A stretch of DNA of 64,000 bases. Origin: Eledone cirrhosa (taxonomy: Eukaryota). The DNA lies in assembly GCA_964016885.1 (NCBI GenBank), contig OZ024756.1, forward strand, positions 23,560,001 to 23,624,000, written 5' to 3'. Under the pieces are notes generated by a model. It saw only the letters and a list, made by a program, of their open reading frames with translations, was not told the origin of the DNA and did not search any database. The translations under genes were made by a program, and so were the position numbers. Positions 3,707-60,059 of the stretch are shown here, in pieces; position 1 is the first letter of the stretch, and each line of letters starts with the position of its first letter.

Positions 3707-3994
3707 CAAGGTTTAGCAAATAAGAAAAAGTTTTAAAATAAATTTTAAAAAATTCACTCTATCTGCTATGGTTACCTTTACCGAACGGTTTCGAGTCTCA
3801 AAAATAAATGGATAGTCCTTGCGGACCTCCATTGAAAAGAACCTTCTGACGAGAGTTTTTCTTTTCAATGGAGGCCCGCAAGGACTATCCATTTATTTTT
3901 GAGACTCGAAACCGATTCGGTAAAAGTAACCATAGCAGATAGAGTGAATTTTTTTAAATTTATTTTAAAACTTTTTCTTATTTGCTAAACCTTG

Positions 3995-5525: not shown

Positions 5526-5700
5526 CAATGATATTAATAAATAGAAACTATATTTATGAAACCATATTTATTCTATTATATATATTTCAAGGGTACCAAA
5601 ACTTTGGTACGGTCTCATCAGATAAAATACAAACATTGTTTTATAAATAGTGACATACCCAGGAAACAGACTTTAACGGTTCACGTTCCGTTTGGATGTA
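5526..5700 (-). mobile_element. Family A hammerhead element, single-arm copy in (TA)n
   Basis: Aligns by eye with 25528-25700 and 30995-31140 (gatattaataaat.gaaactatatttat.aaaccatatttat...tcatcagataaaata...gacatac). Confidence 0.8.
5569..5629 (-). ncRNA. Type I minimal hammerhead ribozyme (family A)
   Basis: Minus strand: tattttat-CTGATGA-gaccgtaccaaa gt tttggtaccctt-GAAA-tatata-TA-atagaata. Stem I 8 bp with one G-U; palindromic minimal helix III. Confidence 0.82.
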
Positions 5701-25527: not shown

Positions 25528-25700
25528 CAATGATATTAAATAAATGGAAACTATATTTATAAAACCATATTTATTCTATTATATATATTTCAAGGGTACC
25601 AAAACTTTGGTACGCTCTCATCAGATAAAATACAAAGTTTGTTTTATAAATATTGACATATCCAGGAAGGAGTTCTTAATGGTACAAGTTTTTCCTGGAT
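25528..25700 (-). mobile_element. Family A hammerhead element, single-arm copy in (TA)n
   Basis: Close paralogue of 5526-5700; ends in a short foldback atatccaggaa...ttcctggatat. Confidence 0.8.
25572..25632 (-). ncRNA. Type I minimal hammerhead ribozyme (family A)
   Basis: Minus strand: tattttat-CTGATGA-gagcgtaccaaa gt tttggtaccctt-GAAA-tatata-TA-atagaata. Confidence 0.85.
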
Positions 25701-30262: not shown

Positions 30263-31034
30263 ATATATATATATGTTTCTGTGTGTAAATATATATATAT
30301 ATGTGTGTGTATGTATATATATATATGTCTGTGTGTGTGTATGTGTGTGTGTGTATATATATATATGTGTGTGTGTGTGTATGTATGTATGTGTGTGTGT
30401 GTGTATATATATATGTGTGTGTGTGTATGTATGTATGTGTATATATATATATATGTGTGTGTATGTATGTATGTATGTATGTATGTGTGTGTGTGTATAT
30501 ATATGTGTGTGTGTGTGTGTGTGGTGTGAATGAATGAGAGAAAGAGAACTCCTCCTTTCACCACACACACACACTGAATAAATAAATAAATAAATAAATA
30601 AATATACTGGAAATAAGATGAAAAGGTGAGAGGGGGAGAAGAAAGAAGGGGGAGAGGAGGGGGTAGGAATAAGAATAGAAGAATACAATAAGAATAGAGT
30701 GGAATAATAGAATAGGAGTGAGAAATGTTGTTATTGTTGTTGTTGGTGTTTGGTGGTTGCTGTTATTTTTATTATGTATCGTAGAGTAACAATTTCTGAA
30801 AGGATCAGTAACGTTCTCCTCCTCCCCCCCCCCCCCCCCCATCATCATCATCACCACAAGCAGAATTGTCATCATCATTATCATCATATATGTAGTATAT
30901 GTGTATATATATATTACTCTTTTACTAGTTCCAGCCATCCAGCTGAGACCATGCTGCAGCACCGCCCTTATATATATATATATATATATATATACGATAT
31001 TAATAAATGGAAACTATATTTATAAAACCATATT

Positions 31035-31099
31035 TATTTCATTATACATATTTCAAGGACACCAAGTTAAATTATGGTGTGCTTTCATCAGATAAAATA
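31035..31099 (-). ncRNA. Type I minimal hammerhead ribozyme (family A), left arm of palindrome
   Basis: Minus strand: tattttat-CTGATGA-aagcacacca taatttaact tggtgtcctt-GAAA-tatgta-TA-atgaaata. Confidence 0.87.
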
Positions 31100-31225
31100 T
31101 AATATAGAACAGTTTTATAAATAAATATTGACATACCCTTAAAGAATGGTCCCGGAGCTTCCAACAGAAATGGTCGCATTCTTTAAGGGTATGTCAATAT
31201 TTATTTATAAAACTGTTCTATATTA

Positions 31226-31290
31226 TATTTTATCTGATGAAAGCACACCATAATTTAACTTGGTGTCCTTGAAATATGTATAATTAAATA
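31226..31290 (+). ncRNA. Type I minimal hammerhead ribozyme (family A), right arm of palindrome
   Basis: tattttat-CTGATGA(31234-31240)-aagcacacca...tggtgtcctt-GAAA(31271-31274)-tatgta-TA-attaaata; one mismatch in stem I. Confidence 0.82.
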
Positions 31291-31433
31291 AATATGGTTT
31301 TATAAATATAGTTTCCATTTATTAATATCGTATTTTTACTCCAAATATTTGTTGAGTGCTTTATATCAGTTATAAAAATATTTGCTTGTTGTATCCCAAC
31401 AATTTAAATAGAACTTTAAATGTATATATATAT

Positions 31434-57049: not shown

Positions 57050-57553
57050 AATAATTGTTTCTACTTTTGGCACAAGGCCAGCAATTACCCAGTTCGTTAC
57101 TGGTACTTTATTTTATCGACCCCGCAAGGATGAAAGGCAAAGTTAACCTCGGCGGGATTTAAACTCAGAATGGCAAGGGCCGTAACTCTATACGTCAAAG
57201 CATGGCGTCCGACCCTCTACCGATACTGCCAATCCATAATAATTGTTTCCACTTTTGGCACAAGGCCATCAATTACCCAGTGCATTACTGATACTTTATT
57301 TTATCGACCCCGTAAGGATGAAAGGCAAAGTTAACCTCGGCGGGATTTGAACTCAGTCCGTAAAGGGACGTAACTGTGCTGCAAAGCATGGCGACCGACC
57401 CTCTACCGATACTGCCAATCCACCGAATTCATGATAATGATTCCTGATTTAGACACAAGGCCAACAATTTGGGAGAGGGGAAAGTCGATTAAATCAACCC
57501 AGTGCATTACTGATACTTTATGTTACCGACCCCGTAAGGATAGAAGGCAAAGC
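57050..57553 (-). mobile_element. Tandem of SINE-like copies (57050-57238, 57239-57423, partial 57440-57553)
   Basis: Head-to-tail copies joined by ataat. Confidence 0.85.
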
Positions 57554-58180: not shown

Positions 58181-58188
<8 letters not shown>

Positions 58189-58340
58189 GGCTTCTACAGA
58201 AAAGGCTTCCTGATGATTTCTCCCGAATGAAACAGTTCTAGTCCTGTAGAAAAGCCATTTCTATATTAAATGTTTATACTCTGCTCTGTATTGAGTACCT
58301 TACTTACTGTGGTTACCTCCGATTGAACCCGGGATAAACA
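58181..58340 (+). mobile_element. Family B element with hammerhead and 5' foldback
   Basis: atagaaatggcttctacag pairs with ctgtagaaaagccatttctat; GTATTGAGTAC at 58288-58298; flanked by (TA)n. Confidence 0.7.
58204..58256 (+). ncRNA. Type I hammerhead ribozyme candidate (family B)
   Basis: ggcttc-CTGATGA(58210-58216)-t ttc tccc gaa t-GAAA(58229-58232)-cag ttctagtc ctg-TA-gaa(aa)gcc. GUA triplet. Helix II is weak and stem I has a bulge. Confidence 0.65.
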
Positions 58341-58625: not shown

Positions 58626-58682
<57 letters not shown>

Positions 58683-58686
<4 letters not shown>

Positions 58687-59662
58687 AAGGTTAAACAAGG
58701 TTCAATGAATAAATCAAAGAATGAGTTTTACAATAGATTGGAAGCACTCAACAGAAATGGTCGGGGCCCGACGGCTGAGCTCTTGCCTTATACATACCTA
58801 TAATATAAGATAATATAATTTAATATGGTTTACCTTCGTGTGGATGAAAATACTAAGTTTCTTTCTCATGTTTGAAAATACTTTAAATATGATTTTATAA
58901 ATTAAATATGTTAGTATACTTTAATATTAATATAGACATTTATAAACTTTTATAGCCTGAAATATTATATCTTTAGTTTAATCCATTATTCTGAACTAAC
59001 GTAAGGAATTTGAAATTTAACGGTCAGCCGGATAAGTTTGGATATATATGGTGTATAAATAATTGTTAGTATATTTCTTATTAATTGAGGACTCAAAATT
59101 AAACCCTCATATAATTACACCCAAATATATTTAATATTTAAATAGATGGATCCTTCTAGATAATTCAAAGATTCGAGTTTACTCTTTCACAAAGCTATGC
59201 CCAAATGTATATTCATCTATGCTTTATACTATAAAAATTATTCCCCTTTGTCTCTCTATCCTTGATCAATTCTCTTTTGCTTTCTATACTTCTAGTAACT
59301 ATATTTTTTCCTCATCTGTTTCTCCCTGTCTTTCTTCTTTCTTCAATAATTTAAATTATTTGAATCTCTAACAGTTATGTAAATTTCTATTATGTATTTT
59401 TAAGCTTTCTCACACGCACCCTCTCTATTATATGTAAGTATTTTCGTGTCTCAATCTTAAGGTATATAAATATTGAGTCTTGTCATATCATATTCACTAC
59501 CATGACTGAATCTTAACCATCTACTATGTCAGGGTATGTCATGCATCATCTTATTTTATCTGATGAGGACGTACTGTTGAAGATAGCTCAGTACCTCTGA
59601 AATATGTATAATAAAATATACTTGATCACACGAATGTCTATTTTTGTTAATATTTTGAATTA
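58683..59662 (+). mobile_element. Long (~1 kb) non-coding family A element ending in a hammerhead, between (TA)n tracts
   Basis: AT-rich with no ORF. Shares CAACAGAAATGGTCG (58749-58763) with the loop of the 31 kb palindrome, CCCGACGGCTGAGCTC (58767-58782) with 4127-4142, and gggtatgtca upstream of the ribozyme with other family A copies. Confidence 0.6.
59552..59618 (+). ncRNA. Type I minimal hammerhead ribozyme (family A), best-formed copy
   Basis: tattttat-CTGATGA(59560-59566)-ggacgtactg ttgaagatagct cagtacctct-GAAA(59599-59602)-tatgta-TA-ataaaata. Perfect 8 bp stem I. Confidence 0.9.
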
Positions 59663-60059
59663 ATATATATATATATATATATATACTGTGTATATATATA
59701 TACTGTGTATATATATATACAGTTATATACATACACATATATGTGCACGCGCACATACTTACTCATACATACGTAGGCATGGCTCAATTGTTAAGAAGTT
59801 TCCTTTGAAACCATGTGTGTGTGTGTATGTGTGTACGTGGTGTACGTGCGCGTGTATGCGTGTGTGGTGTACTTGTGTGTACGTGTGCGTCTTGAGATTT
59901 GGGGTGGTTAGTACGGCCCGCCGTTTTGCTGAATGTGACATGTAAGATGGTGACGAACAAACAGATTGACAGCCAGGCATTAACACTATAATAGAAACAA
60001 ATATCAACATCATCATCATCATCGTCATCATCATAATCAGCAGCAGCAGCATTACCATC

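Follow-up and report, generated by a model that had tools for sequence, protein, structure and literature searches.

The window analysed here, a stretch of 64,000 nt of microsatellite-rich DNA from Eledone cirrhosa, contains a 5'-truncated copy of a Penelope-like element (PLE), which we assign to the Hydra clade by motif comparison (see below) and which lies between two (TA)n runs (58681..59665, + strand). The copy comprises an inverted tail piece (about 58681-58759) and a 3' UTR (about 58800-59551, +), followed by a minimal type I hammerhead recognized by its core, helices and fold (59552..59618, +), and it ends about 55 nt beyond the predicted cut. On the + strand throughout, helix I is formed by 59552-59559 with 59611-59618, the core CUGAUGA spans 59560-59566, helix II pairs 59567-59576 with 59589-59598, and the GAA occupies 59599-59601 (GAAA, 59599-59602). 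Helix III (59602-59609) has 2 bp and a near-palindromic AUGU loop, and the cut is predicted after A59610, the last base of an AUA triplet.

The CUGANGA and GAAA core and the NUH cut triplet that define a type I hammerhead are found (CUGAUGA, GAAA and AUA), and the core is unchanging throughout our alignment of lineage representatives; the G10.1-C11.1 first pair is mostly missing, a G-C being present there in 5 of 30 lineages. At pair 4 of helix II, the cytosine on the 5' side (59570, +) is unpaired and faces a second cytosine (59595, +), in whose place sister lineages have U or A but no source lineage seen has G. We call these two bases C10.4 and C11.4, in the hammerhead position numbering. 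An Rfam scan of the window gave 0 matches at the gathering threshold, and a scan of 59500-59660 returned no hammerhead family up to E=10; Rfam hammerhead models do not cover the present minimal form.

A scan for the hammerhead core revealed five motif copies in the window (+59560, +31234, -31091, -25624 and -5621). This is one more than the four listed in the initial annotation, whose quoted helix II strands were all found in place, the 31 kb site holding two copies, +31234 and -31091. These belong to a sister subfamily with CxC at pair 4 and form the right (31226..31290, +) and left (31035..31099, -) arms of a head-to-head pair, in which 30992-31333 is self-complementary at 93.6%. Two hammerheads of a third subfamily, both with CxC at pair 4, are located at 25572..25632 (-) and 5569..5629 (-), and the latter has an additional CxC at pair 3 that likely represents post-insertion decay. 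Read from the core outward, the helix II pairs are GU GC AU CxC GC UA AU CG UA GC at 59.6 kb, AU AU GC CxC AU CG AU CG CG AU in both 31 kb copies, GU AU GC CxC GC UA AU CG CG AU at 25.6 kb and GU AU CxC CxC GC UA AU CG CG AU at 5.6 kb. Core and helix III had been described as fixed; the core is invariant, but loop III varies, being either AUGU or AUAU.

At two of these sites (25560-25650, -, and 31210-31305, +), helix I does not stop at 8 bp but, after a bulge or internal loop, resumes as a further 11-bp stem; such an extended helix I, which occurs in several subfamilies, would tether both ends of a unit-length RNA after cutting. The window also contains a second hammerhead family (58183-58340, +, core at 58210) with a short helix II, a longer helix III, a UxU first pair and a C-G pair 4, carried on a short (TA)n-flanked repeat that has many relatives elsewhere. 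Decayed-looking cores at 3846 (+) and 8396 (+) resemble two further hammerhead families, represented by L028 (long helix II with position 4 paired) and L043 (bulged-base minimal type). At 57060-57550, a SINE-like repeat of 170-190 bp occurs three times head to tail in diverged copies, and the same repeat breaks elements elsewhere (L025, L373).

Host element and helix III

Relatives of the 59.6 kb sequence reach upstream into an ORF on the same strand, about 2 kb ahead of the ribozyme. It is a single ORF in which a reverse transcriptase (RT) precedes a C-terminal GIY-YIG nuclease (YIG or YVG), in frames of 743-750 aa, and two of these Hydra PLE frames are almost without interruption (L366, 750 aa; L367, 743 aa). 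Its motifs are a YRDD-type RT, DKT, a CxCX5C linker, the YIG-type nuclease at the C terminus, CxxC and CxH, with RWR where the Hydra clade has RWK. Pfam and PDB sequence searches with the ORF frames, L366 and L367 included, gave no recognition, and the clade assignment therefore relies on motif comparison by eye, in which the ORF matches Hydra-1_Obim motif by motif.

The full-length loci L369 and L376 have direct repeats flanking the ORF, with a hammerhead in both. The predicted cut is 209-214 nt ahead of the start codon in 6 of the 7 loci measured (the seventh gave no script score for this distance), and the motif itself lies about 260 nt upstream of that codon. Insertion traits are of the Hydra type, with (TA)n targets, inverted 5' pieces and a tail, and in 32/37 copies the (TA)n run is reached 50-69 or 140-169 nt beyond the predicted cut. 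Judged from its sequence and setting, the motif is almost certainly a type I hammerhead in the terminal repeat of a Hydra-clade PLE. We rejected an origin as a non-LTR retrozyme, which consists of tandem 170-400 nt repeats, since the copies, which derive from coding elements, are dispersed as truncated ends or occur in inverted pairs.

The Hydra-clade PLEs described in the available part of Craig et al. 2021 (PMC8557442) share with the present elements the single ORF with RT and C-terminal GIY-YIG-type nuclease, the DKT, RWK-like, CxxC and CxH motifs and CxCX5C linker, (TA)n targeting, and a sense-strand type I hammerhead near the 3' end, the first helix II pair of which is often U-U or G-U. 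They are mostly under 3 kb with a helix III of mostly 3-4 bp, whereas the units found here are about 4.0-4.3 kb long, including a 3' UTR of 1-2 kb, and have a 2-bp helix III; the ribozyme of the octopus Hydra family in the same part of that source also differs from the present one.

Loops of helix III seen among the copies are AUAU, AUGU, GCGC, GAUC and ACGU. Helix III was computed at +4.7 kcal/mol as a monomer hairpin and at -2.2 to -10.5 kcal/mol as a self-duplex (three loop types), and by these energies the short palindromic helix would be unstable in the monomer and pairing in a dimer would be feasible. The lower extreme, -10.5 against -2 to -3 kcal/mol for the other loops, belongs to the GCGC loop III, which is carried by a CxU sister family of 18,529 young-looking copies (L179-L198, the first at G000:C1:540612).

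Other elements were encountered in the same DNA. An autonomous subfamily with an 8-bp helix II and CxA at pair 4 includes full-length copies (L370, L371, L376, L160 and L172). Different Hydra lineages are nested in one another's (TA)n flanks (e.g. L061, L063, L068, L078-L079), often as head-to-head pairs 100-250 bp apart. A near-perfect, retrozyme-like tandem array of about 13 units of 310 bp (L064:401-4336) carries a hammerhead core in each unit, with a short helix II and a GCGU-type helix III.

Helix II among copies and source lineages

The exact family pattern has 28,177 matches in the 3.0 Gb assembly and 0 in the reversed control, and a wider lineage pattern has 94,320 matches versus 59 in its control. 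The C-C opposition at pair 4, which the initial annotation had attributed to every copy, is present in 5/5 window copies but not strictly so genome-wide, where C occupies 10.4 as well as 11.4 in 25,213 of the 28,177 family matches (89.5%). C10.4 is missing from 1,803 matches and C11.4 from 1,253; the 92 copies that retain neither are close to the 80 expected under independent decay. Among 100 listed exceptions of each kind, all subfamilies are represented and the changes are mostly C to T (by eye), and in 61 copies of one subfamily the two pair-4 cytosines are retained no better than the adjacent bases. Since both decay like their neighbours within a subfamily, copy counts are uninformative on selection and we rejected copy-level conservation as evidence for it. 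Such counts reflect decay following insertion, and only the comparison of source lineages is informative.

For that comparison, 1.15 Mb of retrieved DNA was scanned for the structure without demanding any mismatch. The scan yielded 300 distinct motifs, of which 251, in 68 clusters, were kept after removal of 49 copies picked by exception searches, and 30 representatives, one per lineage, were chosen by eye. Because the scan required 4 of the first 6 helix II pairs, pairing is somewhat overstated, though the gap at pair 4 is not; with this in mind, standard pairing is present at pairs 2, 3, 5, 6 and 7 in 30, 30, 29, 29 and 29 of the 30 lineages, with 3-5 pair types at each. Pair 1 is standard in 25 (A-U 12, G-U 8, G-C 5; U-U in the other 5), and pair 4 in 0/30 (CC 21, CU 5, UC 3, CA 1). 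Three representatives carry U10.4, two of them from C-majority clusters and the third (L013) a lone copy. Changes on both sides were seen at 6/7 helix II pairs and at 4/4 pairs of helix I, which is 98% paired. The covariation score of helix II is 0.835, compared with 0.10-0.18 in slid controls, and was reached by 0/500 shuffles in a test that ignores kinship among lineages. Covariation in helix II, as initially proposed, is thus confirmed. Shifting the helix II register by one leaves 65 or 34 of 120 cells paired versus 118/120 unshifted and was rejected, and there is no added unpaired base between A9 and 10.1 in the unshifted register.

Kinship was considered with a tree of the linked endonuclease, whose fragments are 28-95% identical across lineages, with values as low as 28-50%. 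It covers the 17 of 30 lineages with a linked ORF (the link being to the nearest downstream motif), has a length of 7.3 substitutions per site and several weak nodes, and pair states were entered by hand. On this tree, pairs 3, 5 and 6 changed 3, 5 and 4 times, with the same counts for the 5' side, the 3' side and the pairs; these equal two-sided changes, along with the shuffle test, uphold the earlier suggestion of structure-level selection on the RNA of the source elements. C10.4 has 0 changes on the 17-lineage tree versus 3-5 at other 5' positions (Poisson p about 0.015), and 11.4 has 2. What had been described as a conserved C-C mismatch is therefore better described as a C10.4 unpaired across lineages whose partner may be C, U or A, and this unpaired C10.4 is very probably under selection in the source lineages. 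Families with a different helix I are also CxC (429 matches).

Among clusters with a long helix II, the pair-4 mismatch occurs in 36/37 with a minimal helix III versus 1/14 with other helix III types, the lone minimal exception being a register shift caused by a 3-nt duplication. The mismatch lineages probably all share one ancestral event rather than 36, so that this association is not independent evidence. Several short-stem families in the same genome have C10.4 paired with G, as do 15/25 published Hydra families (by eye, in the available part of PMC8557442), and for this reason the mismatch seems to have arisen by loss of the G opposite a retained C. This hints that the C itself is what is recognized, although common descent would account for it just as well.

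A G at 11.4 would strengthen the hairpin by 5.5-6.7 kcal/mol in 8/8 hairpins computed. C-G copies at pair 4 number 383 of the 94,320 (the gap ranges allowed by the two patterns are slightly different). For the family where C-G looked commonest, a tree of flanking sequence included 12 such copies among 36 (11 of 14 retrieved from that family plus one earlier locus), and these need 12 separate changes. A C-G source lineage was sought and none was found, the C-G copies of this tested family not clustering on the flank tree; in the one family tested, C-G versions recur independently and found no lineage. Non-C bases at both 10.4 and 11.4 were found in 325 matches versus 28 in the control, and those listed are either chance matches or copies in decay, many of which belong to the CxA family.

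Possible roles of the unpaired cytosine

Helix II in this lineage consists of three pairs, a fixed unpaired C10.4 facing C, U or A, and then a longer stem, and we propose that the mismatch may be a grip point for the element's own protein, which would switch the predicted cutting on. That the C is fixed while its partner is C, U or A suggests recognition of a base rather than of just any mismatch, and this asymmetry at pair 4 points to recognition of C itself. A fixed helix I partner for C10.4 was sought across 25 lineages and none was found, which shifts the balance in favour of a protein or of local structure. According to the available part of Frangieh et al. 2024 (PMC11167929), the anole PLE hammerhead requires PLE protein for cutting, and the main in vitro template is uncut RNA. 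Counting against a contact on helix II, the same part reports that the anole protein is bound downstream of its ribozyme, where it may be no more than a chaperone, and that the ribozyme is dispensable for insertion in vitro. By analogy with the anole element, we regard a putative protein-contact role of C10.4 as quite possible, if somewhat doubtful on balance. It is with still more reserve that we suggest the fuller proposal, namely that the Hydra PLE protein recognizes C10.4 specifically and thereby gates its own hammerhead, a switch kept across lineages and about 94,000 copies.

The remainder of the proposed cycle is borrowed from published PLE work. With a helix III of 2 bp, a single motif would be inactive, and two motifs of a tandem transcript would pair by their palindromic loops; PLE hammerheads of the minimal type cut as dimers, weakly, in the available part of PMC4209133. 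Cutting as a double hammerhead would free a unit-length RNA, its ends held by helix I and possibly re-joined, and the weak helix II base would keep an RNA-only ribozyme poor. Reverse transcription would begin past the cut site, using RNA that is uncut or has been re-joined as its template. In the copies, insertions end 50-60 and 140-150 nt beyond the predicted cut, and a start past the cut would leave most insertions as short 3' ends with an intact ribozyme.

Canonical hammerheads have a 4-bp helix II, with loop II starting about at pair 4. The mismatch would sit about at this point, and helix I is extended in several subfamilies, with an internal loop after 8 bp. Both observations would suit an RNA-only tertiary contact or hinge, in which helix II, with C10.4 flipped out or acting as a bend, docks on helix I or on the dimer partner, the docked helix replacing the loop I-loop II contact that is impossible for a long helix II. 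We consider such a hinge unlikely: the first helix I defect occurs anywhere from 4 to 11 bp out, there is no conserved G or partner among 25 lineages, and by eye no helix I trait goes along with the identity of the base at 11.4, be it C, U or A.

It is also rather improbable that the mismatch serves as a brake on stability, whereby it and the weak first pair loosen the core-proximal part of helix II so that cutting is slow and the full-length template is spared. The scarcity of G-C at pair 1 is in line with such a brake, G10.1-C11.1 being highly conserved in other PLE hammerheads in the available part of PMC4209133, as are the gain in stability that pairing position 4 would bring to every hairpin computed and the fact that G is the sole base never fixed at 11.4. 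Moreover, insertions terminate downstream of the cut site with the motif intact, which implies that their template was uncut or re-joined RNA. However, any mismatch would then do and the 5' base should drift, yet 10.4 is unchanged on the tree even though C is the most mutable base in the copies.

Inheritance without function, from a single origin followed by too few substitutions to erase the mismatch, is very unlikely. One origin is itself likely, the tree is limited to 17 lineages and the Poisson probability above is no smaller than about 0.015; but the endonucleases are as low as 28-50% identical, loop II is unalignable, the flanking pairs changed 3-7 times as pairs, and helix I swapped pairs too. 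A DNA-level constraint, with a terminal-repeat promoter or an endonuclease site fixing the C, can practically be dismissed: the motif does belong to a promoter-bearing repeat, about 260 nt ahead of the start codon (the PLE promoter is placed in the terminal repeat in the available part of PMC6765202), but the bases flanking the C vary and covary as pairs, and a one-base DNA motif is implausible.

Published hammerheads and significance

PLE hammerheads with a long helix II and families rich in compensatory changes were already reported in 2014 (PMC4209133, available part), and Hydra-clade ribozymes in 2021 (PMC8557442, available part). The ribozyme class, the host elements and the covariation are thus already known, and what appears to be new, within the literature covered, is the fixed unpaired C10.4 in helix II. 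A long helix II with a pair-4 mismatch is present in 0/25 Hydra families by eye, as far as the available part of PMC8557442 goes. In the corresponding part of Cervera and de la Pena 2014 (PMC4209133), the metazoan PLE minimal hammerheads resemble the present motif in their short palindromic helix III and in residing in terminal direct repeats, but have an extra A9-10.1 base that is absent here, whereas here G10.1-C11.1 is mostly missing and the C10.4 mismatch is fixed; among the 56 metazoan examples in that part, by eye 0 have CxC at pair 4, where a sea urchin example has CxA and another example UxU.

The anole Poseidon element PAc, as presented in the available part of PMC11167929, likewise has its ribozyme just upstream of two RT starts that define the tail and uses uncut RNA as template, as we infer here. 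PAc belongs to a different PLE clade, its ORF starts inside stem II rather than about 210 nt after the cut, and its cutting is protein-dependent, a dependence that is putative for the present hammerhead. Hammerheads of Schistosoma and of animal retrozymes (PMC7229834 and PMC6155905, available parts) are alike in core, topology and cleavage as dimers where helix III is weak, and one axolotl family has UxU at the helix II base; the canonical type I hammerheads in these parts have a 4-bp helix II and conserved loop-loop contacts that are absent here, and retrozymes are short tandem repeats, in contrast to the autonomous elements and truncated ends found here.

A literature search found no account of the pair-4 mismatch; Lunse, Weinberg and Breaker 2017, which may describe the variant, and bioRxiv supplements fell outside its scope, and bioRxiv 10.64898/2026.07.22.740005 was covered in part. 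In a metagenome motif scan, 116 among at least 117 loci lacked the helices, and the 1 weak pass of the helix filter looks like chance.

The role of PLE hammerheads and their poor cutting without the element protein are a standing question, to go by the available parts of PMC4209133 and PMC11167929. One non-core base that is very probably under purifying selection, in a helix usually deemed a free spacer, provides a precise target for mutation, and CxC, CxU and CxA forms, short and long stems and near-complete ORFs offer a natural comparison set. Searches that require a perfect helix II overlook about 94,000 ribozymes in this one genome. If C10.4 is indeed a contact for the element's protein, the Hydra PLEs would contain a natural protein-gated hammerhead, its switch kept across lineages whose endonucleases are as little as 28-50% identical.
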